Shown here: positions 20,779 to 52,960 of the stretch, in pieces
How positions within the stretch are numbered: the first letter of the stretch is position 1
Layout of the letters: each line of letters starts with the position of its first letter
From: Thermoprotei archaeon
GTDB taxonomy: Archaea > Thermoproteota > Thermoprotei > Gearchaeales > WAQG01
DNA: 64,000 bases
NCBI GenBank assembly: GCA_038881895.1
Contig: JAVZOV010000004.1
Location: forward strand, 34,521-98,520
Direction of reading: 5' to 3'
Position numbers and translations under genes: made by a program
Notes under the pieces: generated by a model
What the model was told of the DNA's origin: nothing
Databases searched by the model: none
The model's input: only the letters and a program-made list of their open reading frames with translations

Positions 20779-22818
20779 TTATTTTGTTTCCTTTTTTGTT
20801 TCTTGTAACGAATTACCTAAAAGTTCTGCTACATCCATTACTTCCATATTGAATTCTGAGGCTTCGCTGCGCAACATTACATTACAAAACGGGCACGCGA
20901 CTACCACCTTATTTACATTAGTTGATGAAGCTTCTCTCATTCTAACTTTGCTTATTCTCTCACCTTTCTTTATATCGAAAAATGCATGTCCTCCTCCGCC
21001 GCCACAGCAAAATGTATTTCGTTTGATTCTATTCATCTCTTTAATTTCAGCAACATTTTTTATGATGTCTCTTGGTTCATTGTAAATGTTATTCCATCTT
21101 GCTAAGTAGCATGGATCATGATAGGTAACACTTTCTTTTGTTTTATTAATGCTTAATTTACCTTCTTTTATGAGCCTTTGTAGTAATATAGTATGGTGTT
21201 CAACCTCTATTTTTACTCCATACTGAACATATTCATGCTTGAAATTATTATAACCATGCGGACAATTAACTAATAATTTCTTGAATTTATATTTTTTAAG
21301 TATGTTTGAATTCTTTTGCACGATGTCCCTAAATAAGTACTCATCCCCTATTCTTCTTGCTGGCTCACCACAACAAACTTCTTCTAGCAAAACTGCAAAA
21401 TTTATATCAGCTTTTTTAAGAATCTTCATCAAATTATAGGCTACACTCCTAATGTTTGGATCGTAACTTGCATTACAACCTAACCAGTATATATAATCAT
21501 ACTCTATTTCTTCACGAGCTATCTCAACATTAAGTTCTGACGTCACAGATTTTAACCATGCCTCTCTATCCGCAGGATTATAACCATAAGGATTACCAGT
21601 TCTCATTATGTTATACGAGACTTGCTGTAATTCAGATGGTGTGTTTTCTCCAGAGGAATATATTCCACGTCTAAGATCTATTATAGTCTCAACCTGATTT
21701 ATTAAGACGGGACATACTTCAACACATGCACCGCATGTTACACAAGACCATATAACATCTGGGTTTATAGAATCTGGCACTAACTTTTTATTAAAATTCC
21801 TTTTATGCATTTCCTTTTTAGTATCAAGCATTACCATCATCGGACTTAATGGCTTCCCAGTGAGATTTGCTGGACATGCATTATGGCATCTCGCACATTG
21901 AGTGCACGCATCAAAATCCATTCGTTGCTTCCAAGACAAATCTGAAAGCATTACAGCCCCTATAGGCTTACCTTCCTCTACCAGCTTGTCCATGTTAGTT
22001 ATTGGTTTGTTAGCTGCAACAACTGGTTCTTCTAGTCTAGAAAAGAACGTATTTAGAATACCACTAACGAACATATGATAGAACTTTGTAAAAGGTATGA
22101 GGGCAATACTAGCAAGTGCTAGTGTTAAATGAAACACCCAAAGTATTCTATAAAACTCAATATAATTATTACCAAAGAGACTTCTAATAGAAAAAGCAAG
22201 AGGATAACCTATTACGTCCCAATCGTCAATCCATTGTAATCTGTAATTTAAAGTATTGATAGCATCCAGTATGAAACCTGTTACTATTATTATTAATAAG
22301 TCGATTAAAATTAGATAATCTTCTCGAGACGTAGGCAAATCTCTGTACGTTTTAAACACTCGTCTAATCAATGCTAATACTATGCCTATAATAGCCAAAA
22401 CACCTGAAATGTTAACCATAAGCTTAAACATTAAATACGCTGAGTCAACAAGAAATCTTGAACCGAAAAATCGTAAATATACATCATACTCTATTCCACG
22501 AAGTATCGTACCTATAAAAAGACCGATCATACCAATATAAATAAACACATGCACTGTGCCTCCTTGTTTCTGTCTTATAACCTTTGCTTGGAGTATGCCA
22601 TATTTGATAAGTCGTGATAATCGTTTTCCAAAATGATCAAAACTTATCCTTTGTCCTCCATAACTCCATAATTTAAAACTTCTGTAAACACCGTAAAGTA
22701 ATATTATAGCTACAATTATAGTATATATGTACACAAGAGATTCTAGATCCTCAACAAGGTTAAAATGTTTAATACCTTCAAATACATATAGAATATTTTG
22801 AACAAAAAACATGTACAT
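20779..22818 (-). CDS. Membrane-bound Fe-S oxidoreductase, fused HdrE-like (membrane, His-containing) + 2x[4Fe-4S] ferredoxin + HdrD-like double CCG domain; candidate ETF-linked quinone reductase (EtfD-like)
   Basis: Five or six N-terminal TM helices with conserved His; CTQCARCHNACP and CVTCGACVEVCP ferredoxin motifs; CCG-domain cysteine clusters (VCCGEP..., CCGGGGGHAFF, ACPFC); directly downstream of etfB-etfA on the same strand. Confidence 0.65.
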   Translation of the reverse strand: MYMFFVQNILYVFEGIKHFNLVEDLESLVYIYTIIVAIILLYGVYRSFKLWSYGGQRISFDHFGKRLSRLIKYGILQAKVIRQKQGGTVHVFIYIGMIGLFIGTILRGIEYDVYLRFFGSRFLVDSAYLMFKLMVNISGVLAIIGIVLALIRRVFKTYRDLPTSREDYLILIDLLIIIVTGFILDAINTLNYRLQWIDDWDVIGYPLAFSIRSLFGNNYIEFYRILWVFHLTLALASIALIPFTKFYHMFVSGILNTFFSRLEEPVVAANKPITNMDKLVEEGKPIGAVMLSDLSWKQRMDFDACTQCARCHNACPANLTGKPLSPMMVMLDTKKEMHKRNFNKKLVPDSINPDVIWSCVTCGACVEVCPVLINQVETIIDLRRGIYSSGENTPSELQQVSYNIMRTGNPYGYNPADREAWLKSVTSELNVEIAREEIEYDYIYWLGCNASYDPNIRSVAYNLMKILKKADINFAVLLEEVCCGEPARRIGDEYLFRDIVQKNSNILKKYKFKKLLVNCPHGYNNFKHEYVQYGVKIEVEHHTILLQRLIKEGKLSINKTKESVTYHDPCYLARWNNIYNEPRDIIKNVAEIKEMNRIKRNTFCCGGGGGHAFFDIKKGERISKVRMREASSTNVNKVVVACPFCNVMLRSEASEFNMEVMDVAELLGNSLQETKKETK

Positions 22819-22824
22819 TTTTTT

Positions 22825-23760
22825 TCACTTGATTGTTTTTTCTTTAAGCTTTTTAATAAATACTGGGAGAAATTGGTATAAATCAGCGATAACACTGTAA
22901 TCCGAATATTTAAATATTGGAGCATTTTTATCCTTATTTATAGAAACTATTACCTTCGCATCTACTGCAGAGATATGTTGGGGAGCACCAGATATCCCTA
23001 TTGCTACATAAAGTTTCGGTCGTATCTTCTTACTAGAAATTCCAATCCACACATCCTCAGGCAACCATTTAAGATCTGCAGCAATAGGCCTACTACATCC
23101 AACTTGAGCATCTATGATTGATGCCAAATCAAAAGCCAACTTTAAATCATCCTTCGACTTAAACCCTCTACCAACACCAACAACGGTATCTGCAGCCTCA
23201 ATATTCACCTCACTCTTCTTCTTCTCTTCAAAACTTACCAGCCTAACATTAGATACTGGAGGTGAGACTTTCTCAATGGCAGCAATTTTCTGAGATATTT
23301 CAAAAGGCTTAAATTTCTTAATTGGTACAGTAACAGCCGCATGTTTTGATGTCACCTCTCTACTTATAGCTCTTCCTCCTAGAATATTTCGTTCAAAAAT
23401 AATATTATTACCATCCAGTGAAACTGAAAGAACTTCTGTTAGCATTGGTAAATTATGCTTGGCTGAAACGCGAGCAAGAATATCATTACCAGTTTTTGTT
23501 GCAGATCCGATCAATAACCTCGGTTTCACCTCATTAAAAATCTTAGAAATAACTTCAGACACCTGATCAGGCAGAACTGCCCCTTCAATAACATATAGTT
23601 TATCAAAACCATAACGTGCTGCCTCGTTTACATCTCCATTGCTAACTGTAATACCTATCATACTGGTGCTGAATCCATTTCGTAACAATTCTGCAACAAG
23701 GCCTGAAGCATCTACTAATAATGAAGGTCTCTCTCCAAAAACTATAACAGTTTCAACCAT
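22825..23760 (-). CDS. etfA: Electron transfer flavoprotein alpha subunit
   Basis: C-terminal FAD-binding region (AVGISGAPQHISAV-type motif) and N-terminal Rossmann-like domain. Confidence 0.8.
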   Translation of the reverse strand: MVETVIVFGERPSLLVDASGLVAELLRNGFSTSMIGITVSNGDVNEAARYGFDKLYVIEGAVLPDQVSEVISKIFNEVKPRLLIGSATKTGNDILARVSAKHNLPMLTEVLSVSLDGNNIIFERNILGGRAISREVTSKHAAVTVPIKKFKPFEISQKIAAIEKVSPPVSNVRLVSFEEKKKSEVNIEAADTVVGVGRGFKSKDDLKLAFDLASIIDAQVGCSRPIAADLKWLPEDVWIGISSKKIRPKLYVAIGISGAPQHISAVDAKVIVSINKDKNAPIFKYSDYSVIADLYQFLPVFIKKLKEKTIK

Positions 23761-23773
23761 TCATATCATCTCC

Positions 23774-24586
23774 TCATATTCTTGGTTTTATAACACCCTC
23801 CTCTATCAGTTTAGAAATTAACTTTTCAGATACTTCATCAAAAGTACTTGCTTCTATTATTATGTTTTTCCTAGAAACCATTAACAACCTCACTGATTCA
23901 CGCCTATGCCCAACGTCAAGTAATTGTATGTTTAAATCGTTCAAAGTAAATTTTTTAAGTGGTTTTGCAAACGCCCTCCGTATTTGCAAGAGCATTGGCA
24001 ACCTAGCCCTATTAATCTCACCAGTCACGCTGATTACTGCAGGTAATGACGCCTCGATCCATTGCAATGAATCCTCTAAGTCACGAAGAACTTTAACTTT
24101 CTTATTCTCTATGTCAAGTTCTATAGCTCGCGCAAATGTTACTGTTGGAAGATTTAAGATCGTTCCAATTCTGGAAGCAATCTGCGCAGAAATAACATCC
24201 ATCGAAGCTTCGCCTGTGAGGTAAAGATCATAATTGCCTGTTTTTTTAACCGCTGATGCAAGTGCTATTGCTGTTTGGAGTGGATTAGCATTTATTAATC
24301 TCTCATCTGTAACCATGTATGCCTCATCAGCTCCCATGGCCAATGCCTCTCTTAATACTGATTCAGTATCATTAATACGTTTTGCAAGCGGTCCCCAAGT
24401 CACAACTGAAAAGACCGCAATTTTTCCACCAAATTTTTCCTTTATTCTTACGGCTTCTTCAACAGCATTCCTATCATATTCACTGATTACAAGAGGTATT
24501 TCCTCGATAAGAAGCTTACCGGAACTGTCAACTCTGATCATGTTAGCATCTAGTGATGCTTTAACCATTACAGCCACATCAACCAT
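23774..24586 (-). CDS. etfB: Electron transfer flavoprotein beta subunit
   Basis: ETF-beta fold with adjacent etfA. Confidence 0.8.
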   Translation of the reverse strand: MVDVAVMVKASLDANMIRVDSSGKLLIEEIPLVISEYDRNAVEEAVRIKEKFGGKIAVFSVVTWGPLAKRINDTESVLREALAMGADEAYMVTDERLINANPLQTAIALASAVKKTGNYDLYLTGEASMDVISAQIASRIGTILNLPTVTFARAIELDIENKKVKVLRDLEDSLQWIEASLPAVISVTGEINRARLPMLLQIRRAFAKPLKKFTLNDLNIQLLDVGHRRESVRLLMVSRKNIIIEASTFDEVSEKLISKLIEEGVIKPRI

Positions 24587-24766
24587 AATACCTCAGTATT
24601 ACATGCAAATCTAGAATTATAAAGTTTTTTATTATGTATTAATAATTTTAAGAAGAAATAATGAAATGCTGTCTTGTATTAAATGTATTGATTTTTGAAT
24701 TAAAATTATTATTATTAGAATAACAAATTTTGTATGAACACTTAATCTAAAGCGATAAAAAATAAA

Positions 24767-25114
24767 TTATGATTTTGCTGCCTCTATCATTTTTCTTAAC
24801 GATGTAGTCTCTATCACATTTCCTGTAATTTTCATTTGACCTCTAATAAATGCAGCCATAGAATCTAATTCGCCTTTCAATATTTTGATAAGAGTTTCCT
24901 TACTCATTGTAAGTGTTGCTGTAGGAGAATTGTGAGAACCCTGAACAACATTCGCACTTCCTTGTTTGAACTCTATATAAAATGGTTCTCCACCTTCTAT
25001 ATTAAACTGAAATATTTTATTCCAACCTGCCATTTCATTCCCCATCTTTAACTTAGCCTTTTCATACACCGCTTGTATTAAAGACTTAATATCTTCGGAC
25101 ATGCTCAACACCAT
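24767..25114 (-). CDS. SCP2 (sterol carrier protein-2-like) lipid-binding domain protein
   Basis: 115-aa alpha/beta protein with an SCP2-like pattern; beta-oxidation cluster context. Confidence 0.6.
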   Translation of the reverse strand: MVLSMSEDIKSLIQAVYEKAKLKMGNEMAGWNKIFQFNIEGGEPFYIEFKQGSANVVQGSHNSPTATLTMSKETLIKILKGELDSMAAFIRGQMKITGNVIETTSLRKMIEAAKS

Positions 25115-25201
25115 TTAAAATATTACCTTATCATCTTATTATATTTAACCATCGATTTTATGTGGCCGATAGCATATAACTGGGTTTTGCGTTATGCGCA
25201 T

Positions 25202-25216
25202 CTTCATAATATGAAG
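25202..25216. promoter_or_regulatory. Candidate operator: 7-bp inverted repeat CTTCATAaTATGAAG upstream of a TATA-like box (tttataa, ~25230-25241) in the divergent SCP2/thiolase intergenic region
   Basis: Palindrome read directly from sequence, about 47-61 bp upstream of the thiolase start; no similar site seen at other promoters in the cluster. Confidence 0.25.
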
Positions 25217-25262
25217 TGGAATTCCAGAATAACTTTATAACGTATTTAATGTATCATTTATA

Positions 25263-26465
25263 GTGGTGTTCTTCTTGGGTAGGAATGTGGCTATAATAGG
25301 TGTTGGGCATTCTAAATTTGGAATACGAACCGACGTAAATGTTGCAGAACTTGCATGGGAAAGCACAAAACAAGCAATGGAAAACGCCGGCGTTGATCAA
25401 AAAGACATAGATTATTATGTTACATCAAACGTTGGTGCATGGAGCAGTGAACCATTACCTGCTGTAGTTGTTGGAGAGTATAGCGACCTTGTACCCAAGG
25501 GCACTGTTAGAGTTGAAGCTGCGTGCGCATCAGGTAGCGCAGCCCTAAAACTTGGACATGATATGATAGCTAGTGGAGAAGCAAATATAGCATTGGTTGT
25601 AGGTGTAGAAAAAATGAACGAATCTCCAACACCAACTGTAGTAGAGTTCATTGGTAGGGCTGGAAATTATTTTTGGGAATTTGAAAACTTTGGTCTTACT
25701 TTTCCTGGATATTATGCTCTTTATGCAACAGCGTACATGTCTAAATATGGAGCCACCGAGGAAGATCTGTGCCAAGTTGCAGTTAAAAACCATTACTACG
25801 GTGCAAGGAATCCTAAGGCACAATTTCAAAAAGAAATCACCGTAGAGGAATGCATGAGATCTAGATATATCGCATGGCCTTTAAAATTACTTGATTGTTC
25901 ACCTATAACTGATGGTTCGGCTGCAATAATACTTGCAAGCGAGGAAATTGCCAAAAAAGTTACAGATACTCCTGTCTGGATTAAAGCTATTGGTTACGCA
26001 AATGATACTGCCAATTTAAGCAGACGTGATAATTTCCTTAGCTTAAGAGCTGCTGTTGAAGCAGCTAAGATGGCTTACAAAAAAGCTGGCATAGATGAGA
26101 CTGATCTTGTTAAGAACTTCGATGTAGCAGAAGTCCACGACTGTTTCACTATAGCTGAGTTACTTGCATACGAGGATCTAGGTTTTGTGAAAAAAGGTGA
26201 GGCAGTAAAATTGATCAGGGAAAAACAGACTTACATCGGGGGTATCATACCAGTCAATCTTAGTGGTGGTTTAAAAGCAAAGGGTCATCCTATAGCTGCA
26301 ACAGGAGTCAGCATGGCTGTAGAACTCACAAAACAGTTGAGACAGGAAGTAGAAAGAGAGCGTCAAGCACCTATTAAAAAAGGTATGGCGATAGCCCATA
26401 ATGTAGGCGGCACAGGTCATTATGCATATGTTACAATCTTCTCTCTTGATAAACCAAGGAGGTGA
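25263..26465 (+). CDS. Thiolase-family protein (acetyl-CoA C-acyltransferase / archaeal-type thiolase)
   Basis: N-terminal VAIIGVGHSKFG and active-site Cys region (EAACASGSAA); 4-nt overlap with the downstream DUF35 partner gene. Confidence 0.8.
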   Translation: MVFFLGRNVAIIGVGHSKFGIRTDVNVAELAWESTKQAMENAGVDQKDIDYYVTSNVGAWSSEPLPAVVVGEYSDLVPKGTVRVEAACASGSAALKLGHDMIASGEANIALVVGVEKMNESPTPTVVEFIGRAGNYFWEFENFGLTFPGYYALYATAYMSKYGATEEDLCQVAVKNHYYGARNPKAQFQKEITVEECMRSRYIAWPLKLLDCSPITDGSAAIILASEEIAKKVTDTPVWIKAIGYANDTANLSRRDNFLSLRAAVEAAKMAYKKAGIDETDLVKNFDVAEVHDCFTIAELLAYEDLGFVKKGEAVKLIREKQTYIGGIIPVNLSGGLKAKGHPIAATGVSMAVELTKQLRQEVERERQAPIKKGMAIAHNVGGTGHYAYVTIFSLDKPRR

Positions 26466-27040
26466 GTGCTATGAGTGCTCAACAGAAGGTTGAGAAAAAG
26501 AAGACACAAAAAGAGCAGACTGAAGAAGTCACAAAGCAATTTAATGAGTTTGTTGAAAGCATAAAGAAATCAACAGGACTACCAATAGTACCAGACATGA
26601 AAAGCGGAGCCGCACAATGGATAGACCAGCGAGAATTAACATTGAAATATGTAATAAGTGTTGACAAAATCAGAAAATTCTTCGATGGATTAATTGACGG
26701 CAAACTTTATGCGACAAAATGTAAACAATGCGGAACACTTTATTTTCCACCACAGGTCGATTGTCCTAAATGTAGGAAATCGGACATGGAATGGATCGAA
26801 TTAAGTAACGAAGGAGAACTGCTCACATACACAATAATAAACGTAAAACCGAACAGCTTTTCACATTATGATGATTACACAGTAGGTATTGCTAGACTAA
26901 AAGAAGGAATTAATATCACAGCATGGGTACGAGAAACTGATCCTAAAAAATTAAGAGTAGGAATGAAAGTTAAGGTTATAGTAACAAAACGTGAACCTGA
27001 AGGATATTTAACTTATGAATTAGAACCACTAACATCCTAA
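26462..27040 (+). CDS. DUF35-type Zn-ribbon/OB-fold protein (thiolase partner subunit)
   Basis: CKQCGTLYFPP...CPKC rubredoxin-like zinc ribbon followed by an OB-fold; conserved pairing with archaeal thiolases. Confidence 0.7.
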   Translation: MSAMSAQQKVEKKKTQKEQTEEVTKQFNEFVESIKKSTGLPIVPDMKSGAAQWIDQRELTLKYVISVDKIRKFFDGLIDGKLYATKCKQCGTLYFPPQVDCPKCRKSDMEWIELSNEGELLTYTIINVKPNSFSHYDDYTVGIARLKEGINITAWVRETDPKKLRVGMKVKVIVTKREPEGYLTYELEPLTS

Positions 27041-27113
27041 AGAATGGGGCTTGATTGTAAACGAATAGTTTTTAAACATGTATAAACAAGTATTTATGTG
27101 GAGGAGATAATAT

Positions 27114-28322
27114 TTGTTTCCCTTCAACAGTATTTTAGATTTTAAAGTAGAATTAACAAATGAACATGAAATGTTCAGAAAAATGATAAGACAATTTGCC
27201 GAAAACGAAATAGCACCAAAAGTTATGGAAATAGAAAAAACAAACACAATACCAGAAGAACTCATCAACAGAGCAAAAGAACTAGGACTAATGGGCGTTG
27301 GAATACCACCAGAATATGATGGACAAGGTGGAGGGGCTATGATGCTTGTCATACTCATGGAAGAACTTTCAAGAATTTCACCAGCATTCGCAACAAAAAT
27401 CGCAGTAAACCATCTATTTACAACACCAGTACTCATTTTTGGCACAGATGAGCAAAAAAAGAAATATATACCACCAATTGCCAGAGGTGAAGCTTTCGCA
27501 GCTCACGCAAATACAGAACCTGCAGCAGGTAGCGATGTTGCAGGCATACAAGCAACAGCTAGAAAAGAAGGAAATTACTGGATAATTAATGGTAGAAAAA
27601 TTTTCATAACAGGTGCAGATAGAGCTAAATATTTAGTAGTTTCCGCAAGAACAAGTCCACCACCAAGCAGAAAAGAAAGATGGAAAGGTTTAACATTCTT
27701 CATAGTAGAAGCTAACTGGCCTGGTATAAAAATTGGGTCAAAATTCAATGTAATAGGATTAAAAGGCGAACAACCTAACGAAGTGATACTTGATGATGTA
27801 AAAGTGCCTGAAGAAAACGTTCTAGGCAGAGAGGGAGAGGGATTCAAAGTTGCCGTCACAACATACGATCATGGAAGACTTGGGATCGCTGCCCAAGGTG
27901 TAGGTATTGCACAAGCAGTGTTTGAAAAATCATTAAACTATGCGCTACAGAGATACGCATTTGAAAAACCACTAATCTCATTCGAAGGAATAGCTTTTAA
28001 ACTATCAGATATGTTAACAGAACTTGAGGCAGCCCGCATGCTTACTTACTGGGCAGCCACACTAACAGATGCACAGAGACCCGAAGCCATAATGGCAGCA
28101 TCGCTGGCTAAAATGTATGCTACCGAAGTGGCGGAAAAAACCTCAGCACTAGCAATAAAGATTCACGGCGGTGTCGGTGTTGATCAAGAAGCAGGGATTG
28201 AGAGATACTTAAGAGATGCCCTCATAACAACAATTTATGAAGGAGCAAATGACATACAAAGAATAACAGTCATCAGAAGTCTATTAAGACAAGTATTTGG
28301 AACCAGCGTTGATATGATATAG
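27114..28322 (+). CDS. Acyl-CoA dehydrogenase
   Basis: ACAD N-terminal, middle and C-terminal domain pattern; TTG start preceded by a GGAGG Shine-Dalgarno-like motif. Confidence 0.8.
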   Translation: MFPFNSILDFKVELTNEHEMFRKMIRQFAENEIAPKVMEIEKTNTIPEELINRAKELGLMGVGIPPEYDGQGGGAMMLVILMEELSRISPAFATKIAVNHLFTTPVLIFGTDEQKKKYIPPIARGEAFAAHANTEPAAGSDVAGIQATARKEGNYWIINGRKIFITGADRAKYLVVSARTSPPPSRKERWKGLTFFIVEANWPGIKIGSKFNVIGLKGEQPNEVILDDVKVPEENVLGREGEGFKVAVTTYDHGRLGIAAQGVGIAQAVFEKSLNYALQRYAFEKPLISFEGIAFKLSDMLTELEAARMLTYWAATLTDAQRPEAIMAASLAKMYATEVAEKTSALAIKIHGGVGVDQEAGIERYLRDALITTIYEGANDIQRITVIRSLLRQVFGTSVDMI

Positions 28323-28335
28323 GAGGGGTAAAACA

Positions 28336-30324
28336 TTGAGTGTTGAACAAATTAAAAAAATCGCAGTAATAGGCGCTGGTACAATGGGACATGGAATAGC
28401 AGAAGTAATGGCATTAGCTGGGTATGAGGTTTGGATAACCGATATAGCCGAAGAATTTCTAAAAAACGCAATAGAGAAAATTAGATGGAGTGTTGGAAAA
28501 TTATATGAAAAAGGGCAAATCAAAGAAAATGTCGACACTGTACTCTCCAGAATACACGCTACACTATCGTTCGAAGAAACTGTTAGGAATGCGGACTTCA
28601 TGATAGAAGCAGTACCTGAGAAGCTGGATCTCAAAAAAGATGTATTCTCCAAAGCTGACAAAATTTTACCACCACATGCAATACTTGCTACAAATACAAG
28701 TAGTCTTCCTATAACGGAAATAGCTAATGTAACAAGCAGGCCTGAAAAAGTCATCGGCATGCACTTCTTTAACCCACCACCATTAATGCCATTAGTTGAA
28801 GTTGTTAAAGGTCAAAAAACTGATGATAACACAGTAAAAATAACGTATGAATTAACAAAGAAGATTGGAAAGCAGCCAGTCATAGTGAAAAAAGATGTAC
28901 CTGGATTCATAGTAAATAGAATACTGGGAAGATTACTTAACGCTGCGTGTTGGATAGTTGCAAATAAACAAGCCGATATTATTGAAGTTGACGCAACAGT
29001 ACGTTATAAATTAGGTTTTCCCATGGGAGCATTCGAGTTGGCCGATTATAGTGGGATAGATGTTTTCTATTTTGTGTTTAAAGCAATGAGCGAACGTGGG
29101 TATGTGGCTCACCCATGTCCATTATTTGAAGAGAAATTTAAAGCAAATGAATTAGGAATGAAAACAGGGAAAGGATTCTACACATATCCAGCACCAGGTA
29201 AATACGTACGACCAGAAATACCAAAAGAAAAAGCAGAAAAAGTAGACCCACTAATGATAATTGCTCCTGCAATAAATGAAGCATCATGGTTACTTAGAGA
29301 AGGAATAGCCAGCAGAGATGATATAGATAAAGCATGTAAACTAGGATTAGGATATCCAAAAGGCATTCTGGAATACGCCGATGAATATGGTATAGATCAC
29401 GTAGTAAGCACACTCGAAAGTCTCAAAAACATAACAGGATGGGAAGAACATAAGCCCGACCCATTACTTAAGCAAATGGTTAACGAGGGCAAACTCGGAA
29501 TGAGAACAGGAAAAGGATTCTATGAATACGGTGTCGTCGAAGAAAGAAAACTTTCCACAATTCTATTAAAACTCGAACCACCACTAGCATGGATAGTACT
29601 CAATAGACCAGAACGCTTAAATGCAATAAACATAGACATGTTAAAAGAATTAAACATAATATTAGATGAACTAGAAGAGGATGAAAGAATAAGAGTTATA
29701 ATACTAACAGGTTCTGGAAGAGCATTTAGTGCAGGAGCTGATGTAACAGGTTTCATGGGAATCACCCCAGTTAAAGCAGCAATATTCTCCAGAAAATTCC
29801 AAGAAATTCTAAATAAAATAGAATACTATACAAAACCAGTAATCATCGCTGTAAACGGATACGCACTAGGTGGAGGGCTCGAAATGGCAATGAGTGGTGA
29901 TATAAGAATAGCCTCCGAAACAGCACAATTAGGACAACCAGAAATAAACCTTGGTTTCATACCAGGTGCAGGAGGAACACAGAGACTATCAAGACTAACA
30001 GGGAGGAGCAAAGCTAAAGAAATAATCTTCACAGGCGATATGATATCAGCAAATGACGCACTAAAAATAGGGCTAGTTAACAACGTAGTACCACCAGAAA
30101 AACTCGAGGAAGAAACACGTAGGTTCGCATTAAAACTAGCAGAAAAACCACCACTAGCACTCATGGCAGCCAAGTATGCAATAAACTTTGGACTTGAATC
30201 AAACATATGGGCAGGCTTAGCATACGAAGCAAGCCTCTTTGGATTACTCTTCAGCACCGACGATGTAGTAGAAGGCGTGAGTGCATTCCTTGAAAAACGA
30301 AAACCAAAATTCAAAGGAAAATAA
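28336..30324 (+). CDS. Bifunctional 3-hydroxyacyl-CoA dehydrogenase (N-terminal) / enoyl-CoA hydratase (C-terminal) fusion
   Basis: NAD-binding IAVIGAGTMGHGIA at the N-terminus; crotonase-fold C-terminus (ALGGGLEMAMSGDIRIAS). Confidence 0.8.
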   Translation: MSVEQIKKIAVIGAGTMGHGIAEVMALAGYEVWITDIAEEFLKNAIEKIRWSVGKLYEKGQIKENVDTVLSRIHATLSFEETVRNADFMIEAVPEKLDLKKDVFSKADKILPPHAILATNTSSLPITEIANVTSRPEKVIGMHFFNPPPLMPLVEVVKGQKTDDNTVKITYELTKKIGKQPVIVKKDVPGFIVNRILGRLLNAACWIVANKQADIIEVDATVRYKLGFPMGAFELADYSGIDVFYFVFKAMSERGYVAHPCPLFEEKFKANELGMKTGKGFYTYPAPGKYVRPEIPKEKAEKVDPLMIIAPAINEASWLLREGIASRDDIDKACKLGLGYPKGILEYADEYGIDHVVSTLESLKNITGWEEHKPDPLLKQMVNEGKLGMRTGKGFYEYGVVEERKLSTILLKLEPPLAWIVLNRPERLNAINIDMLKELNIILDELEEDERIRVIILTGSGRAFSAGADVTGFMGITPVKAAIFSRKFQEILNKIEYYTKPVIIAVNGYALGGGLEMAMSGDIRIASETAQLGQPEINLGFIPGAGGTQRLSRLTGRSKAKEIIFTGDMISANDALKIGLVNNVVPPEKLEEETRRFALKLAEKPPLALMAAKYAINFGLESNIWAGLAYEASLFGLLFSTDDVVEGVSAFLEKRKPKFKGK

Positions 30325-30450: not shown

Positions 30451-30574
30451 GGGGCCGTCGTTCAGCCTGGATTAGGATGCCAGCCTGGGGTGAATACCCC
30501 ACAGGGATTCCCGGAACGCTGGTGATCCGGGGTTCAAAACCCTGAAAAGGGTGAAAATCCCCGCGGCCCCACCA
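30451..30574 (+). tRNA. tRNA-Pro (anticodon GGG) with two predicted introns: 26 nt after position 37 and ~19 nt within the T-loop; genomically encoded CCA
   Basis: Manual folding: acceptor GGGGCCG/CGGCCCC, D-stem GTTC/GGAT, anticodon stem CCAGC/GCTGG with loop CUGGGG|intron|C, T-stem CGGGG/CCCCG enclosing 26 nt instead of 7. Confidence 0.65.
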
Positions 30575-30691
30575 TCTGTTTAAGAATTATGTTTAAATGA
30601 TTCCTTATTTCAAAAATAATAAAAAAGTTTATATTAATCATTTAAAGAAAAATTTATTCTTGTAAATAGATAGAACTACTGATGAACATGA

Positions 30692-30783
30692 TGGGGCCGG
30701 CCGGATTTGAACCGGCGATCCCCAGGGCCCGAGCCTGGTACTCTAGGTTTTTAGCTTCCTAGACCAAGCTAGACTACGGCCCC
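30692..30783 (-). tRNA. tRNA-Pro (anticodon CGG) with a ~16-nt insertion (probable non-canonical intron) in the D-arm; no encoded CCA
   Basis: Reverse complement folds as acceptor GGGGCCG/CGGCCCC, intact anticodon stem-loop CCAGG-CUCGGGC-CCUGG, T-arm GCCGG-UUCAAAU-CCGGC; the D-arm region is 38 nt instead of ~19. Confidence 0.6.
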
Positions 30784-30877
30784 GGATAAATATAAGGAGA
30801 ACAAATATAAATTTCTTTGTTGTATCACTATGTCCAAGCTTAAATAAGAGAGGGTTTATGTTTTAAGTTGATGCAAT

Positions 30878-34811: not shown

Positions 34812-35360
34812 GTGAGCAAAATTCGAGTAAGATACTCAGAAGGACATATAATAGCATATGACCCGAAGGAAGCTCCTAAATTATTCAAGGAAGGCTTTTA
34901 TGGAAGACCTATTGGAATTGGCAAACCCAAAACATTTAATTTCGAAGCACCTCTTCAATTAAGTCTTTACGAAGCACTATATTTATTAGAAAATGGTGTT
35001 ATAGAGGTAGTAGACACTAACAATAATCCAGTATCCTTTGAGAAACTTTTTTTGGATGCGAAAAAGAATTATGAGGATTTTGATTTAGTATATTCAGTTT
35101 ATAAAGATCTCAGGAAGAAAGGTTTTGTGGTGAGACCAGGAATGAAATTTGGTACAACTTTTGCAGTTTACGAATATGGTCCAGGAATCGATCATGCACC
35201 GTTCCTAGTAGAAATAATGAAAAAGGACAGTAAGTTGAAAACTATTGATATAGTAGGTGCAGGAAGATTAACACATACTGTTAGAAAAAAGTTATTATTA
35301 GCAGTAGTTAATGAAGATAATAGTGTTAACTATTACATGTTCAGATGGATTAAATTTTAA
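34812..35360 (+). CDS. endA: tRNA-splicing endonuclease catalytic subunit
   Basis: Conserved EndA core ...DLRKKGFVVRPGMKFGTTFAVYEYGPGIDHAPFLV... (catalytic Tyr/His/Lys context); 182 aa, as in Sulfolobales catalytic subunits; GTG start. Confidence 0.8.
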   Translation: MSKIRVRYSEGHIIAYDPKEAPKLFKEGFYGRPIGIGKPKTFNFEAPLQLSLYEALYLLENGVIEVVDTNNNPVSFEKLFLDAKKNYEDFDLVYSVYKDLRKKGFVVRPGMKFGTTFAVYEYGPGIDHAPFLVEIMKKDSKLKTIDIVGAGRLTHTVRKKLLLAVVNEDNSVNYYMFRWIKF

Positions 35361-36620: not shown

Positions 36621-37988
36621 ATGGAAATGAAACTTTATTATGACAAAGGCACGATAGTATTAGTTAGCAGGGATCGTATTCCATTACAACTGGTAAAATT
36701 CTTTAAATTTGACCCTAGAATCAATGCGTATAGAAGCTTAGCAATGTATTATCCTGTTATCACATCAATACTTCGAAATTTAAAGATTAGTTTTCTAGAT
36801 AATGTCTTTTATCCTATGGGTTGCCTAAAATTTAATAAACGATTTGATGTGAAATTAAGAGGTTATCAGAGTAGAGCACTAAGCAACTGGATGAATACTG
36901 ATAAACGTGGAATAATTGTGCTACCTACAGGTTCAGGTAAGACACTTATAGGAATTATGGCGATTCTAGAGTTAAAAGAACCAACATTAGTAATCACACC
37001 AACAATAGAGTTGATGGATCAATGGGCTTTGCTTATTCAAAAATATCTTGATGTGGATGTAGGATTATATGGTGGTGGTGATAAAGAATTAAAGTGTATC
37101 ACTGTAACTACATACAGTTCTGCATACCTTAATGCTGAATTAATTGGCAATAGGTTTAAGTTAATAATATTCGATGAAGTACACCATTTACCTAGTGAAG
37201 GTTATAGACAGATTGCTGAACTTTCAGCCGCTCCGTATAGAATGGGCCTTACAGCCACACCAGAGAGAGAGGATGAGGCGCATAAAGATTTAGATCAATT
37301 AGTTGGCCCGATAGTATATAGAAGTGGTGTGAAAGATCTCGCAGGCTCATATTTAGCGAATTTTGAAATTAAAAGGATCTACGTGCCATTGACTAAAGAA
37401 GAATATGCAGAATATAAAAAGCTGAGTAGTATATATGAGGAATATTTCAAGAAACGTGGCTGGACCTTACGGTCATTAAGGGATTTCGAGAAATTTATAA
37501 TGAGAACGGGTAATGATATGAAAGCACGTAAAGCACTTCTAGCATGGAGTAGGGCTAGGTCTATTGCACTAAACTCTTCCACTAAAATGGAAAAATTACG
37601 TGAACTATTACGTTATCACAGAGGCGAACGCATTATCATATTCACTGAACATAATGAACTTGTTAAGCATATTTCTAATGAATTATTAATACCAATCATA
37701 ACACATAAAACTAGCGATGATGAAAGAAAAGCTGTCATGAATGGTTTCCGAACAGGAATATTCAGTACTATAGCAACTAGTAAGGTTCTCGAAGAAGGCA
37801 TCGATGTACCAGATGCAAACATTGCTATAATTCTTAGCGGGTCAGGTAGCAAACGAGAGTTCATACAAAGGCTTGGCAGAATACTAAGACCTAAGGAAGG
37901 TAAAAAAGCAATACTCTATGAAATAATAAGCTCAGGAACAAAAGAAGTACGCGTATCAAAGAAACGATCAAAAGCATTAGGTGAATAA
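36621..37988 (+). CDS. xpb: XPB/Rad25-type SF2 helicase
   Basis: Walker A PTGSGKT, Walker B DEVHH, RED motif (TATPEREDEAH); 455 aa. Confidence 0.75.
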   Translation: MEMKLYYDKGTIVLVSRDRIPLQLVKFFKFDPRINAYRSLAMYYPVITSILRNLKISFLDNVFYPMGCLKFNKRFDVKLRGYQSRALSNWMNTDKRGIIVLPTGSGKTLIGIMAILELKEPTLVITPTIELMDQWALLIQKYLDVDVGLYGGGDKELKCITVTTYSSAYLNAELIGNRFKLIIFDEVHHLPSEGYRQIAELSAAPYRMGLTATPEREDEAHKDLDQLVGPIVYRSGVKDLAGSYLANFEIKRIYVPLTKEEYAEYKKLSSIYEEYFKKRGWTLRSLRDFEKFIMRTGNDMKARKALLAWSRARSIALNSSTKMEKLRELLRYHRGERIIIFTEHNELVKHISNELLIPIITHKTSDDERKAVMNGFRTGIFSTIATSKVLEEGIDVPDANIAIILSGSGSKREFIQRLGRILRPKEGKKAILYEIISSGTKEVRVSKKRSKALGE

Positions 37989-39429
37989 AATGCTTCCAAC
38001 ACAACTACTACGTGTACAAATACGCGGAGGATACATTAAACCAGTTTATGCCGAACTATCCCATGAGAATTTATATCTTGCAGAAAAATTAATCAATATA
38101 TTTAAAAGTTTTATTAATAAAAAACTTAAAGAACTAGAAGATGAACTTAACGAAGCTGAAACAATAGCTGAAAGTGAAGGATATAATTATAAATTCATTA
38201 AAGGATTGATAACCTTGCTAAAACGCAGACTAACTATTAAGGAGACAACTCTCTCCTATGATCCCTTATTTATAAGGCTAGAAATCTTTAAAACAGTAAA
38301 TCAGCTTTATAGAGGATTTGCTTTAACACAAGAAGAACGTAAAAACGTAATAGATCTAGTAGCACAAAAGCTTAACATAAACCATGATGATGTAGAAAAC
38401 GGTTTCAGAGCAGTTTATGAAGAAGAAAACACGATCGATAACTTTCAAGAGATATCACCAGAAGAACTCATAAAACTTTACAATCTATCATTGACACAAA
38501 CATTACTTTTTAAATGCACAAATCTTGTTGCAGATATAAAAACAACAGGTCATAAAACCAGGCAAATCTTATGGAGTATAAAAAGAAATGGTCTACTTTA
38601 CATGGCTGAGAAAATTAATGAATCTGTACGCATAACAATAGATGGGCCTGCATCGATAATAAAGCAAACTGAACGCTATGGAACAAACTTAGCTAAAACG
38701 TTACCATTAATAATTTCTGCAGACCATTGGAACATTGAGGCATCAATAATTAGGAAAACCAGATATAAAAATAAACACTTAACTTACAAATTTATAACTA
38801 ATGATACAAACAAACACCTATATCCAGTTCAATTACTAGAAGGCACTGTGATATATGACAGTTCTCTAGAAGAAGATTTTCATAAAAGATTTAACACATT
38901 AAAAAGCGATTGGACTATTATTAGAGAGCCAGAACCATTAGTGGTCGGGACAAAAATATTCATACCAGACTTTGTTTTTATCAGAAATAATGAGAAAATA
39001 TATCTCGAGATCGTAGGATTTTGGACAAAAGAATACATAAAAAGAAAGATAGAGAAAATGAGAGATTTGAAAAATGTAAAAATGATAATAGCAATAGACG
39101 AAAGTATTGACGAATTCAAAACAGAAGAATTACCTCACACAATAATAAAATTTAAACGTTCATTACCATCATACGAAGTACTCAAAACACTTAACTCTTT
39201 ATCTCCAAAAAACATTACCAAAGAAATGACAGAACTAAAAATAACAGGTGAATCGCAATTAATTAATGTTAACTTAGATGGTATGACGCTTTCAGATGCA
39301 ATTGAAGTATTTAAAACACACAACATAAGTGACGCTAATCTTGAAATAATATTAGAGAAACTTGGCTATAAAGTAGAATGGAATACTCTTGACCCTAACA
39401 AGACAATAATACGAAAAATCAAAAAATAA
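37981..39429 (+). CDS. bax1: Bax1-like nuclease partner of XPB (DUF790)
   Basis: Translationally coupled to xpb (8-nt overlap); size and conserved position fit archaeal XPB-Bax1 pairs. Confidence 0.6.
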   Translation: MNKMLPTQLLRVQIRGGYIKPVYAELSHENLYLAEKLINIFKSFINKKLKELEDELNEAETIAESEGYNYKFIKGLITLLKRRLTIKETTLSYDPLFIRLEIFKTVNQLYRGFALTQEERKNVIDLVAQKLNINHDDVENGFRAVYEEENTIDNFQEISPEELIKLYNLSLTQTLLFKCTNLVADIKTTGHKTRQILWSIKRNGLLYMAEKINESVRITIDGPASIIKQTERYGTNLAKTLPLIISADHWNIEASIIRKTRYKNKHLTYKFITNDTNKHLYPVQLLEGTVIYDSSLEEDFHKRFNTLKSDWTIIREPEPLVVGTKIFIPDFVFIRNNEKIYLEIVGFWTKEYIKRKIEKMRDLKNVKMIIAIDESIDEFKTEELPHTIIKFKRSLPSYEVLKTLNSLSPKNITKEMTELKITGESQLINVNLDGMTLSDAIEVFKTHNISDANLEIILEKLGYKVEWNTLDPNKTIIRKIKK

Positions 39430-39492: not shown

Positions 39493-40287
39493 ATGAAAAT
39501 AATACATGGAATGCTAAAATGTCCATACCTACAACAATTATCATTGGATGATAGCACATGCGTCATCACAAAAACTAAAATAGCTAAAGAGTACCTTGAA
39601 AAATTCTGTTCAAATAATTATGTAAATTGCAAATATTATGAGACCATTAAACTAAACCAAACAGAAAATACCCCAAAGAACACACAATTACGTGAACCTT
39701 TACGTGTAAGAATAATTGACAATTCACGTTCAAAAGAACTCATAAAAAAAGAATCTACAAACATACAGATAGTACCACAAAATCAATCATTAAACATTAA
39801 TATCAACAACATGCTAAATGAGCTCAATAGTGCATGGCATCAATACGAGACAAAAGTAAAAGAAATCATTGAACGTTGGAACACTGAAAAAGAAAAAATT
39901 CTTTCCAGAATATTAAACGAGCGTTCCGGGCTAAATTCAATGTTGGTAAGAGAAGAAGAATTAGAAGGACGAAAAATAATTGGCCTAATAACTGATGAAG
40001 AATACAATACTCTTAAAGCAAAAATTAATGAAGAAAAGAAAATAATAGAAAATAAAATTAAAGAACTCACTGAACATATAATATCTTTTGAAAAAGAATT
40101 AAGCTTACACAGAAAACGTTTAAATTTACCAATAAAACAGGAGGATCTTAATACGTTAAATAAAAAATTAGCTGATCTAGAAAATGCAAAAGAAAAGGGC
40201 ATGATATCTAATACAACTTACGAAAAATTAAAACAAGAAATTACTTTTCGAATAGATTTACTTAAAGAAATATACAAGATGCTTTAG
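39493..40287 (+). CDS. Hypothetical protein: N-terminal Cys-rich segment plus long C-terminal coiled coil
   Basis: CPYLQQ...C...C..NC cysteine pattern followed by a K/E-rich heptad-like region. Confidence 0.4.
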   Translation: MKIIHGMLKCPYLQQLSLDDSTCVITKTKIAKEYLEKFCSNNYVNCKYYETIKLNQTENTPKNTQLREPLRVRIIDNSRSKELIKKESTNIQIVPQNQSLNININNMLNELNSAWHQYETKVKEIIERWNTEKEKILSRILNERSGLNSMLVREEELEGRKIIGLITDEEYNTLKAKINEEKKIIENKIKELTEHIISFEKELSLHRKRLNLPIKQEDLNTLNKKLADLENAKEKGMISNTTYEKLKQEITFRIDLLKEIYKML

Positions 40288-44902: not shown

Positions 44903-46624
44903 ATGAAAAACCTTATGTATAAAATATCGGCATTAATAATGTTAATAATAATATTAGCGCCAATAACATTCGCTGCAACCACTACAACAACACAACCAAC
45001 CGTTACTCAACAAAAATACTACTTTGAAAAATATGGCTGGAAAATATTCACGAATGGCATAATAACTATTCTCATAGTGGGGAATGGCACAAAGCCTATG
45101 TTTATATGGTGGTACAATAAAGACAATTCAACGGCCTATGTATTCAAATATAATGGACTAGCAGAAGTTTGGCTACCTGTATCGAAATTCAAGCACACAC
45201 TCATCTTCAACGATAACGAAGACTACCAAAAACAATTAGATAACCTATTAAGAAATTCTACAAAAGAGGGCAAATCATTAAAGGATCAGTTCAAAGATAT
45301 AATTGACAAATTAAAAGAAGTGCTGAACCTTAAATTAGTGGAAGACGGAAAAGTAAACCTCGATGAAGTGGACAAAGCCATCTCAATCATCAAGGAACTT
45401 AAAAATGACATCAATAATCTAACTTTCGATGAAACAAAGACTCAAATAATAGAAAAACTCAATAGTATCGAACAGCAATTACAGGATCTAAAGAATAATC
45501 CGCAGGTACAAAACGCAATGAAGATAAAAACAGGCATCGTGCAAGTCTTTAATGATCTATTAAAGATGTTTACTGAATATCTTAGTAGAACAATAAGAGC
45601 CTTTGAAATGATCATGCGCGCTATTAAGCATCCGTTCTACCTTCCATTTGATAGTACAGGATGGTCTCTCATAGGACCCCGAAACATTACAGATAATAAA
45701 GGAAACGTAATAGGTGTGCAGTTCACCTTCAATCTAACAAAAGTTCATAACGAACGTTTTAAGTTTGCAGAGGGAAACATCCTCATAAGAAACACGCTCT
45801 ATTTTGTTCCAGTTCAAGTGAAAATTAATAACACAACTATGAACATGACAAGAGCAGAGATGAAAAGCGATATAATAATAAAGCATTGGAACTGGAATTT
45901 CTACGATGCATTGAAAGGAGGACATGAGAATAAGACAATAGAACCTTTTATAATAAGTATTCTGAGCAACCTTTCTCCAAGGTTAGTGCTTATAGCACAT
46001 TTCACAGCACCAAACATGACAAAAGACCCTTATGAAGCCTTCAGGGTGTTATTAAAGGCCGGTGGGGAAGATGAATTAGAGATCGAGAATGGAGAAGTTG
46101 AAACTCATGGTGTTCATGGTTTAAAGCTTGGTGTGAATATGGAGGACGATACAGAAATTAATGAACATGAAATTAACCGTGTTGAAATGCCAGGATTAGT
46201 TATTAAAAGTAGTGAAGGATTAATCGGTGGTTTCTTTAGATTTGTTCCTAATGCGACTGTAACTTACCTGAATGGTACTAAAGAAACAGTACCAGTAAAA
46301 GGATATTTCATATTACATGGAAAACACGTAACAACGTTCTTAGTGTATCCATACTTTAATAATGGCACTTTAGAGCATGATCCATCAATAGGTATCACGG
46401 CCCCAGACATAACACAGGAACAACCAGTGTATCAGGTAAGTGTGTCAACAGGAGGACAGACAACAATAACACCAATATCAACCTCAAGTACATCTTCTAC
46501 TGTCAGCACCTCTAGTGCGGTAACATTAATGCCTCAACAGAATTATTTTACTATGGCATTAGTAATAACAATAGCACTATTAATTGTGATATTTCTAGTA
46601 TTGCGTAAAAGGAATAATGTTTAA
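44903..46624 (+). CDS. Putative extracellular glycoprotein with signal peptide, Thr/Ser-rich stalk and C-terminal membrane anchor
   Basis: N-terminal hydrophobic signal, many N-x-S/T sequons, TSSTSSTVSTSS linker and C-terminal TM helix + basic tail. Confidence 0.5.
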   Translation: MKNLMYKISALIMLIIILAPITFAATTTTTQPTVTQQKYYFEKYGWKIFTNGIITILIVGNGTKPMFIWWYNKDNSTAYVFKYNGLAEVWLPVSKFKHTLIFNDNEDYQKQLDNLLRNSTKEGKSLKDQFKDIIDKLKEVLNLKLVEDGKVNLDEVDKAISIIKELKNDINNLTFDETKTQIIEKLNSIEQQLQDLKNNPQVQNAMKIKTGIVQVFNDLLKMFTEYLSRTIRAFEMIMRAIKHPFYLPFDSTGWSLIGPRNITDNKGNVIGVQFTFNLTKVHNERFKFAEGNILIRNTLYFVPVQVKINNTTMNMTRAEMKSDIIIKHWNWNFYDALKGGHENKTIEPFIISILSNLSPRLVLIAHFTAPNMTKDPYEAFRVLLKAGGEDELEIENGEVETHGVHGLKLGVNMEDDTEINEHEINRVEMPGLVIKSSEGLIGGFFRFVPNATVTYLNGTKETVPVKGYFILHGKHVTTFLVYPYFNNGTLEHDPSIGITAPDITQEQPVYQVSVSTGGQTTITPISTSSTSSTVSTSSAVTLMPQQNYFTMALVITIALLIVIFLVLRKRNNV

Positions 46625-48895: not shown

Positions 48896-50419
48896 ATGAG
48901 TAACATAAGATTACAACGCGCAGGCCTAATAGGTTTTACAGTCCAGTTAATCAGCGCTTTTACTGGGTTTCTTTTTGTAATCATAGTTAGTAGACGTTTG
49001 ACACCAGAGGATTTAGGTACGTGGCAATTAGTAATTTCTACAGCCATGTTCTTTTCATTTCCTTCTCCTATAATAACATATTGGATAGTAAGATTTTTTG
49101 CTAGAAAAATAGACGTAGCGAAAACAGGTTTTATATTAACATTTGTTCTATTATTAATGATAACACCAATTTATTTAATCTCCAGCTTTCTTATAAGCAT
49201 AAAAACTAATACTCCCTTTGTATATTTCCTCTTCGGAATTTTTCTCCTCATATCCTATTATCTAAGAGATAATCTAAATAGTCTCATATTCAGCGTCGAT
49301 CCAGAAAAGGGGTCATTAGCTTTTTTGTTTTCGGAGATCAGTAAAGTAATTATAGCCATCATGGTAGTATTTTTTGTCGGATTAAGTATAATAAATGCAC
49401 TTTCTATAGTGTTTATAGCACTTATTGTGCAAAATTCTGGACTATTTCTCTACACAAAGAGGTACATAATGAAAAGTTCCTTTAATAAGTCTGTAGCATT
49501 GAAGATAATAAAAAATTCGTGGATTCCGCTTTATAGTTCTATAAGCGGATTCTTAGGAATGTTAGATGGAATAATCATAGCTACCATCACAGGTTCCACA
49601 GAATTCATAGCATATTATAAAAATGCTGCAGCAGTAGCATCATTAATAAGCTATGCATCACCCATAGTAGGTGTATTGTATCCCAAAATTTTAGGAAGCG
49701 AACAAGAAACACACGAAATACACATTAGAAATGTTTTGAACTTACTTTTTATGATAATAATACCATCATCGTTAGGAATATTCATACTTGCTAGGCCAAT
49801 ACTCTATATATTGAGACCCGATTACATGAAGGTCACAGAAATTGCACAAATTCTCATTATATCTCAGATAATATATTTAATAGGCTACGTGGCGCAATCA
49901 GCATTACTTGGAATGGAAACAGCAGACCTTAATAATCACTCCTTTAAAGAATTAAGAAAAAGCCTACTAATAAAAATACCAACAATAAACATATTATCGA
50001 ATGTGCTCTACATAACCGGAGTAACACTTGCATCACTCTTTTTCTTCTTAATAAAAGATTTGATTAATTACATGATTATCTTATCATTAATTAATATCAT
50101 AGCTCAAGCAATCAGTTTATACATTTTATGGGCTATGTTGAGTAGAAGAATCAAAAATACATTAAACTATAAATTATCCATTAAATATTTCATAGCATCG
50201 TTACTAATGGGTATAACCATATATTACATGCAACGAGTAATAAAGTTTACCTCAGTATATGAGACTGCACCAGAACTTTTCTTGGTAATAGGAACAGGAG
50301 CACTAACATATTTTATAACACTTTATATAATATCAAAAGAATTCAGAACACTCATCAGAGCAATAATAAATGAGATTAAAAAATCTTTAATAAAAAAATT
50401 CATTCACCTCTATCACTAG
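48896..50419 (+). CDS. Polysaccharide biosynthesis/oligosaccharide flippase (MOP superfamily, Wzx-like)
   Basis: ~14 TM helices with the MOP-flippase N-terminal pattern. Confidence 0.65.
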   Translation: MSNIRLQRAGLIGFTVQLISAFTGFLFVIIVSRRLTPEDLGTWQLVISTAMFFSFPSPIITYWIVRFFARKIDVAKTGFILTFVLLLMITPIYLISSFLISIKTNTPFVYFLFGIFLLISYYLRDNLNSLIFSVDPEKGSLAFLFSEISKVIIAIMVVFFVGLSIINALSIVFIALIVQNSGLFLYTKRYIMKSSFNKSVALKIIKNSWIPLYSSISGFLGMLDGIIIATITGSTEFIAYYKNAAAVASLISYASPIVGVLYPKILGSEQETHEIHIRNVLNLLFMIIIPSSLGIFILARPILYILRPDYMKVTEIAQILIISQIIYLIGYVAQSALLGMETADLNNHSFKELRKSLLIKIPTINILSNVLYITGVTLASLFFFLIKDLINYMIILSLINIIAQAISLYILWAMLSRRIKNTLNYKLSIKYFIASLLMGITIYYMQRVIKFTSVYETAPELFLVIGTGALTYFITLYIISKEFRTLIRAIINEIKKSLIKKFIHLYH

Positions 50420-52754: not shown

Positions 52755-52796
52755 TTGAAAGCACTTAATAAAGTTTACTTAAAACAAGACTTTGAA

Positions 52797-52960
52797 AATT
52801 GACATTCTCCGCGGCTGAAGCCGGGAGATTCTCGGTTCCTCAGGCTCAAGCCTTCATCGTACCGAGTTCGGGCTGTGTCAAGGCAGCCCCTGCCATGAGC
52901 ATGTAGCCCATAGCCCGCTTAAGGATGTTCGTTGCTCCATTATAGTCTGCGTTGCATTGG
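52797..52960 (-). ncRNA. Predicted omega-RNA (reRNA) scaffold overlapping the tnpB 3' end and right end
   Basis: Inference from the TnpB family's known architecture; the same ~125-bp segment is what survives in the remnant at 9013-9137. Extent not determinable from sequence alone. Confidence 0.35.

Follow-up and report, generated by a model that had tools for sequence, protein, structure and literature searches.

A predicted bulge-helix-bulge intron in the D-arm of a tRNA-Pro(CGG) gene from an uncultured Thermoprotei archaeon

In an uncultured, heat-loving archaeon of the Thermoprotei, a gene for tRNA-Pro(CGG) is very probably functional and interrupted in its D-arm by a bulge-helix-bulge (BHB) intron of 16 nt. 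The gene lies near the middle of a 64-kb stretch of DNA (the window). This reading is carried by the anatomy of the gene, by a BHB motif in the register that rebuilds the D-stem, by the conservation of both in relatives, and by the presence of a gene for a matching splicing endonuclease in the window. An earlier, sequence-only reading had named a D-arm segment of ~16 nt as a non-canonical intron, an assignment that very likely holds given the in-register motif and its retention in related genomes.

Gene anatomy and the bulge-helix-bulge motif

The gene occupies exactly the coordinates at which it had first been placed (Table 1), and its acceptor, anticodon and T arms are canonical. Along the minus strand, from 30783 to 30692, it reads GGGGCCG UA GUCU AGCUUGGUCUA GGA[AGCUAAAAACCUAGAG]U A CCAGG CUCGGGC CCUGG GGAUC GCCGG UUCAAAU CCGGC CGGCCCC A. 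The gene does not encode the terminal CCA; TCA comes next instead. The acceptor stem (nt 1-7) is separated from the anticodon stem (5' strand nt 46-50) by 38 nt, as the sequence-only reading had counted, but the spacing to be expected is 22 nt and not the ~19 nt that it had assumed, since the D-loop has 11 nt. When nt 28-43 are deleted, ARAGORN calls a canonical 76-nt tRNA-Pro(CGG) with the D-stem GUCU/GGAU. The restoration of this stem had been correctly foreseen; its supposed likeness to the D-stem of the neighbouring tRNA-Pro(GGG) did not stand, as the latter is GUUC/GGAU. The G+C content of both spliced tRNAs is 67-68%, and that of the window is 34-35%.

The unspliced gene is poorly recognized by standard tools. 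In its default mode, ARAGORN called no tRNA in the whole 64-kb window, and with the option -i the unspliced gene was miscalled as tRNA-Phe(aaa). The Rfam tRNA model gave a partial match of 31 bits (30699-30758) that was barely over threshold. Matches to tmRNA and HPnc0260 were rejected as sub-threshold and local, covering the T-arm and acceptor part. An intron-encoded C/D box RNA was rejected because 16 nt is too short, and a split or permuted tRNA because the gene is contiguous and its order normal.

Table 1. Features of the tRNA-Pro(CGG) gene, its motif, the convergent tRNA gene and the endonuclease gene (positions in the window; nt numbers refer to the unspliced RNA)
Feature	Coordinates	Strand	Details
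tRNA-Pro(CGG) gene, whole	30692..30783	-	92 nt, G1 (30783) to discriminator A (30692)
5' exon	30757..30783	-	RNA nt 1-27: acceptor 5' strand, U8 A9, D-stem GUCU, D-loop AGCUUGGUCUA, G22 G23 A24
Predicted intron AGCUAAAAACCUAGAG	30741..30756	-	RNA nt 28-43, 16 nt, between tRNA positions 24 and 25
3' exon	30692..30740	-	RNA nt 44-92: U25, A26, anticodon arm, variable loop GGAUC, T arm, acceptor 3' strand, A73
Anticodon CGG	30729..30731	-	RNA nt 53-55; ARAGORN on the spliced sequence
Putative archaeal promoter AAAGAAATTTATA (BRE + TATA box)	30806..30818	-	-35..-23 from the tRNA 5' end
Central helix H2, exon strand CUAG	30759..30762	-	nt 22-25 (D-loop end + G22), pairs with nt 38-41; invariant in 5/5 sequences
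Central helix H2, intron strand CUAG	30743..30746	-	RNA nt 38-41
5' splice-site bulge G26 A27 A28	30756..30758	-	Predicted cut after A27 (between 30757 and 30756)
3' splice-site bulge A42 G43 U44	30740..30742	-	Predicted cut after G43 (between 30741 and 30740); invariant in orthologues
Outer helix H1, 5' strand, D-loop AGCUUGGU	30763..30770	-	nt 14-21, 8 bp with nt 45-52
Outer helix H1, 3' strand ACCAGGCU	30732..30739	-	nt 45-52: A26, anticodon-stem 5' strand, C32, U33
tRNA-Pro(GGG)	30451..30574	+	Encoded CCA at end; two introns
tRNA-Pro(GGG) intron 1	30491-30516	+	26 nt, position 37/38
tRNA-Pro(GGG) intron 2	30539-30557	+	19 nt, position 59/60
tRNA splicing endonuclease (EndA), catalytic subunit	34812..35360	+	182 aa, 4 kb from the two tRNA-Pro genes

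The boundaries of the insertion had been singled out as the place to look for a BHB motif, and folding together with sequence geometry places one there, in the register that restores the D-stem. The motif has a central helix of 4 bp (H2) and two 3-nt bulges on opposite strands. On the 5' strand, H2 continues uninterrupted into the outer helix (H1), and on the 3' strand the bulge A42 G43 U44 lies between the two helices. In archaeal BHB motifs, the borders of the intron fall between the second and third residue of each bulge (PMC4307357, PMC4090602). The cuts predicted by this rule, between nt 27 and 28 and between nt 43 and 44, are the exact borders that rebuild the D-stem strand GGA+U. The inner helix (h') of the window consists of a single pair, G29-C37, with a C.A mismatch where relatives have U-A. 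An h' of only 1 bp gives the window a motif of the relaxed type (hBH/BHL-like) at its 5' site.

The unconstrained MFE fold of the precursor has the same helices and a 3-nt bulge, at -45 kcal/mol and z = -3.4. When the acceptor and T arms were enforced, the BHB conformer was the more stable one, with -44.3 kcal/mol at 37 C versus -40.3 kcal/mol for the anticodon-stem conformer, and with -19.5 versus -17.8 kcal/mol at 70 C. Among shuffles of the 16-mer intron, only 0.55% gave a 4-bp central helix in register, which is therefore improbable as a product of chance. For the BHB conformer to form, both the D-stem and the anticodon stem must be open. H1 is an exon-exon pairing that the MFE fold shows for the spliced sequence too, and it is thus not intron-specific evidence.

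The 8-bp complementarity between the D-loop and the strand made of A26 and the anticodon-stem 5' side (30732-30770, minus strand) is the dominant pairing in the MFE fold, also in that of the spliced tRNA, and a weaker version of this alternative helix is seen in the neighbouring tRNA-Pro(GGG). The complementarity may have made the site permissive for a BHB intron.

The precursor can also form a 6-bp hairpin between nt 21-26 and nt 37-42, which involves D-loop nucleotides. Such a hairpin would be expected if the 16 nt were not removed and the mature tRNA kept an enlarged D-arm, an outcome that is extremely improbable. The hairpin consumes G25-G26 of the D-stem 3' strand, so that no normal D-stem could form, and to our knowledge no archaeal cytoplasmic tRNA has such an enlarged D-arm. 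The conserved succession of a 3-nt bulge, 4 bp and a 3-nt bulge, together with the h' of 3-4 bp in relatives, is instead the exact substrate of the splicing endonuclease.

Orthologues and conservation

An orthologous gene was found in the GTDB MAG Thermoprotei archaeon KM4324-16 (L002) and on the metagenome contigs L004, L005, L006 and L012, the metagenome orthologues by synteny walks from homologues of RibK and of 3HCDH/ECH. All five belong to relatives of at least ~84-90% protein identity, in which the tRNA is kept beside the RibK and 3HCDH/ECH genes. This synteny is absent in relatives of 81% identity or less (L007-L011 and L013-L015; RibK at most 79%, 3HCDH/ECH at most 81%). For the 3HCDH/ECH protein, the next relatives come from Sulfolobales-labelled MAGs (~80% identity), followed by those from Pyrodictium, Desulfurococcales and Acidilobus (~65-71%).

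A contig of another MAG assembly (GCA_038883275.1, contig JAVZML010000328.1) corresponds to positions 33703-30789 of the window at 99.97% identity and stops 6 nt upstream of tRNA-Pro(CGG); the assembly thus breaks at the tRNA pair, and neither tRNA-Pro gene is on this contig. A single metagenome contig (L003) matched a pattern of D-loop, gap and anticodon arm, and it was rejected as not being a tRNA.

Comparison with orthologous tRNA-Pro genes, which the sequence-only reading had suggested, found the intron kept at a length of 16-18 nt. The introns of five sequences, from four or five populations, were compared: AGCUAAAAACCUAGAG in the window (16 nt, h' of 1 bp), UGUUAAAAACCUAGAG in L012 (16 nt, h' of 3 bp, derived by hand), AGUUUAAAAAACCUAGAG in both L002 and L004 (18 nt, h' of 4 bp) and GGUUGUGAAACCUAGAG in L006 (17 nt, h' of 3 bp with a GUGA loop). 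A strict hBHBh' motif is present in three of the four relatives. Variation within the intron is limited to nt 1, nt 3 and the loop, which changes in sequence and length. The first nucleotide, the third residue of the 5' bulge, is A, U or G, and the 3'-terminal 7 nt (C CUAG AG) are invariant in the five sequences. Both the range of lengths and the free variation of the first nucleotide fit a segment that is discarded, which speaks against its retention in the mature tRNA. In the five sequences, none of the BHB helices has a compensatory double change, and a shuffle control for covariation was uninformative. The motif is thus supported by its pattern of conservation and not by covariation.

The orthologues also bear on the register of splicing. 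The h' of 3-4 bp in the relatives begins at nt 29, so that the 5' bulge comprises nt 26-28 and the register (27,43) is fixed. A generic scan also gives an in-register solution at (26,44), with an outer helix of 7 bp, because U21-A42 and G26-C37 can lengthen the central helix. In the tRNA-Met of S. tokodaii, the experimental borders were shown to differ from those predicted from the BHB motif (PMC4307357), a point in favour of a different register here. It is nevertheless exceedingly unlikely that the intron is spliced in another register or position (e.g. after nt 26 and nt 44) or by a route other than EndA. With cuts at (26,44), A27 and U44 would be lost and the remaining 74 nt would lack a complete D-stem, and the start of h' at nt 29 in relatives stands against it as well. 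A canonical tRNA is obtained from (27,43) only.

The poor recognition of the gene by standard tRNA finders, its marginal Rfam match, and an inner helix that is the weakest of the five sequences could all be read as signs of decay, in which case the insertion would have inactivated this copy of tRNA-Pro(CGG) and the gene would be out of use. The conservation of the locus makes such a pseudogene highly improbable. Across the five sequences, 74 of the 76 exon positions are invariant (the remaining two vary), while the flanking DNA of L002, the one relative compared in this respect, is only ~85-88% identical to that of the window. The core of the in-register BHB within the insertion is likewise invariant, and its loop drifts and changes in length. 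The promoter is also conserved: the 13-mer AAAGAAATTTATA is identical in L002, L004 and L006 at the same distance, give or take 1 nt, and the spacer around it diverges. Moreover, when the species representatives of GTDB were scanned with the 3' half of the gene, a narrow pattern, the sole match was the orthologous locus in L002, and this MAG therefore shows no second copy with the same 3' half. The preferred reading remains that of a tRNA-Pro(CGG) gene in use, from which the insertion would be spliced.

Neighbouring genes and the splicing endonuclease

The two tRNA-Pro genes had been described as convergent, and they do lie on opposite strands with their 3' ends 117 nt apart (30575-30691). The neighbour contains two introns and not one. 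When both segments are removed, ARAGORN calls a canonical tRNA-Pro(ggg), and both introns have strict BHB motifs, which were derived by hand. BHB introns are thus used elsewhere in this genome. As it stands in the DNA, tRNA-Pro(GGG) was detected neither by ARAGORN nor by Rfam at either threshold. Its CCA is encoded in the window and is not encoded in the L002 orthologue. Transposition of an intron between the two genes was rejected, as the intron of tRNA-Pro(CGG) and the two of the neighbour show no similarity by eye.

The sequence-only reading had also regarded the convergent pair as an unusual local arrangement, a view that the related contigs do not bear out. A tight convergent pair is common to the window and L012, where the spacer is 48 nt, whereas the pair is parted by a PNGaseA-like gene (called at 1.8 kb) in three related contigs (L002 4572-6899, L004 880-2706, L006 91-1869). 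The presence or absence of this gene amounts to an indel bounded by two tRNA genes. The convergent arrangement is incidental.

The endonuclease gene encodes a protein that matches Pfam PF01974 (4.6e-29), PF02778 (7.3e-17) and TIGR00324 endA. Its best solved relatives are the A. pernix subunit 3P1Z_B (1e-45), S. tokodaii 2CV8 and P. aerophilum 2ZYZ_B, all of them alpha (catalytic) subunits of crenarchaeal heterotetramers. Y120, H128 and K159 align with the catalytic triad of the A. pernix enzyme (Y125, H133 and K164). The M. jannaschii alpha4 enzyme aligns to the protein of the window only from residue 48 on. The Crenarchaea-specific loop is also present, as GRPIGIGKPKT versus GQPLDVEKPRG in A. 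pernix, with K38 at the position of K44 and K40 at that of R46. Hirata et al. showed that the loop and its lysine permit the cleavage of D-loop introns and of relaxed BHL motifs (PMC3241643). The genome thus has the right kind of endonuclease, one of broad substrate specificity as judged from the loop lysine, and the protein encoded in the window is the enzyme expected to cut the intron of tRNA-Pro(CGG). The proximity of this matching endonuclease gene is a further point against retention of the insertion. An EndA beta subunit and a ligase were not found among the ~40 larger ORFs of the window that were scanned.

Several other features of the window were recorded. A gene cluster of the beta-oxidation type (20779-30324) stops just upstream of tRNA-Pro(GGG) and comprises genes for an Fe-S/CCG oxidoreductase, ETF alpha and beta, a thiolase, a ChsH2-like OB/zinc-ribbon protein, an acyl-CoA dehydrogenase and a fused 3-hydroxyacyl-CoA dehydrogenase/enoyl-CoA hydratase. 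At 36621-39429 (+), the gene for an XPB helicase has a DUF790 (Bax1-like) gene behind it, as is usual for XPB and Bax1 in archaea. A Cas12f1-like TNB domain is present in each of two ORFs that resemble TnpB/IS605-OrfB, at 52786-53922 (-) and 60405-61592 (+). The 3' end of the first is overlapped by a sub-threshold Rfam match to HgcC (26 bits, 52786-52891), placed where an omega/reRNA would lie, and the local G+C there is 0.42 against a background of 0.34. No Pfam family was matched at E <= 1e-5 by the ORFs at 44903-46624 (+), 48896-50419 (+), 54783-56369 (-) and 39493-40287 (+), which encode 573, 507, 528 and 264 aa, respectively.

Proposed processing and comparison with known systems

Transcription, cleavage, ligation and refolding of tRNA-Pro(CGG) are inferred to proceed as follows. 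The BRE/TATA promoter ~25 nt upstream would drive transcription. In the precursor, the D-loop would pair with the 5' strand of the anticodon stem over 8 bp to give the outer helix, and the exon CUAG next to the 5' splice site would pair with the CUAG near the 3' end of the intron to give the central helix. The precursor must take a non-cloverleaf fold at this stage, because its outer helix is made of the D-loop and an anticodon-stem strand and is not the anticodon stem. The splice sites would be displayed in the 3-nt bulges on opposite strands, in a motif that is relaxed here and strict in most relatives; in the window, the 5' site would lie in a loop closed by one G-C pair. A crenarchaeal-type EndA would then cut each bulge behind its second nucleotide, A27 and G43, respectively, and an RtcB-type ligase would link the exons. 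The predicted spliced junction, formed by removal of the segment between the 27/28 and 43/44 cuts, reads ...GGUCUAGGA-UACCAGG.... The product would refold into a 76-nt cloverleaf with the D-stem GUCU/GGAU, and CCA would be added post-transcriptionally.

The locus has a practical bearing on annotation. Both tRNA-Pro genes are missed or miscalled by ARAGORN, and Rfam catches part of one. A genome annotated in this way would therefore seem to be without two proline isoacceptors. The non-canonical intron models of tRNAscan-SE 2.0 address tRNAs that are missed for such reasons (PMC8450103). The variants of the inner helix (1, 3 and 4 bp), together with the nearby EndA gene, could also offer a natural test set for strict versus relaxed recognition of the BHB motif.

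Non-canonical tRNA introns are common in Crenarchaeota, and 673 were counted in 217 archaeal genomes in the tRNAscan-SE 2.0 survey (PMC8450103). In the D-region, positions 20/21, 22/23 and 25/26 are given in reviews (PMC4090602). Position 24/25, that of the present intron, is absent from the positions given there, in reviews as distinct from primary intron tables. A wider reading would combine three elements: a position outside those given in reviews, a conserved and selected feature of a poorly sampled Thermoprotei family, and a role either as an obligatory refolding checkpoint or in protection of an integration target. If it were true, the BHB would form only in the non-cloverleaf precursor, and splicing would be an obligatory refolding checkpoint for tRNA-Pro(CGG). 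Alternatively, the intron may shield the gene as an integration target, a role that would fit the differences in gene content between the tRNA-Pro genes of relatives. This combined reading is unlikely. By sequence-level criteria, the intron of tRNA-Pro(CGG) is a further example of the well-documented class of D-arm introns; the locus adds one well-defined member to that class and raises no new question.

Cleavage of D-arm introns by recombinant EndA has been shown for tRNA-Glu of S. tokodaii and tRNA-Thr(UGU) of A. pernix (PMC4307357, PMC3241643). In S. tokodaii, tRNA-Glu(UUC) and tRNA-Glu(CUC) carry, as here, a ~16-nt intron that lies towards the 3' side of the D-arm and has a BHB-like motif, and in the precursor of tRNA-Glu(UUC) the exon ends at about nt 22-25 and resumes at about nt 38-42 (PMC4307357). 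The isoacceptor (Glu versus Pro) and the lineage differ. The S. tokodaii introns were cut in vitro by the heterotetrameric crenarchaeal EndA, whereas cleavage of the present intron is predicted; its borders are unambiguous from the sequence. The D-arm intron of A. pernix pre-tRNA-Thr(UGU) is removed by an alpha2beta2 EndA, and K44 of the loop is required (PMC3241643). This enzyme is the one to which the EndA of the window is most similar (1e-45), and its loop lysine has an equivalent there. In A. pernix, the intron begins at a distance of 22 nt from the 5' end, whereas the predicted cut in the window follows nt 27, within the D-stem 3' strand.

Among tRNA-Pro genes, that for tRNA-Pro(UGG) of Pyrobaculum islandicum has introns at 25/26, 37/38 and 56/57, as compared with 24/25 in the window (PMC4090602), and Thermofilum pendens tRNA-Pro, with two introns, has been given as an example of the multi-intron tRNAs of Thermoproteales (PMC4090602, PMC3241643). 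The tRNA-Pro genes of Thermoproteales and the present locus share a non-canonical intron at the boundary of the D-stem and position 26 or in the T-loop. The neighbouring tRNA-Pro(GGG) joins a canonical intron to one in the T-loop, like the multi-intron tRNA-Pro of Thermoproteales, although the lineage here is not Thermoproteales. Finally, the canonical 37/38 intron with a strict hBHBh' motif has the same architecture as the D-arm intron of the window. In both, the 5' strand runs unbroken from the outer helix into a 4-bp central helix, the 5' bulge comes before the intron helix, the 3' bulge lies directly against the outer helix, and the cut follows, or is predicted to follow, the second bulge nucleotide. 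The outer helix is the anticodon stem in the canonical case, and in the window it is formed by the D-loop and the 5' strand of the anticodon stem.
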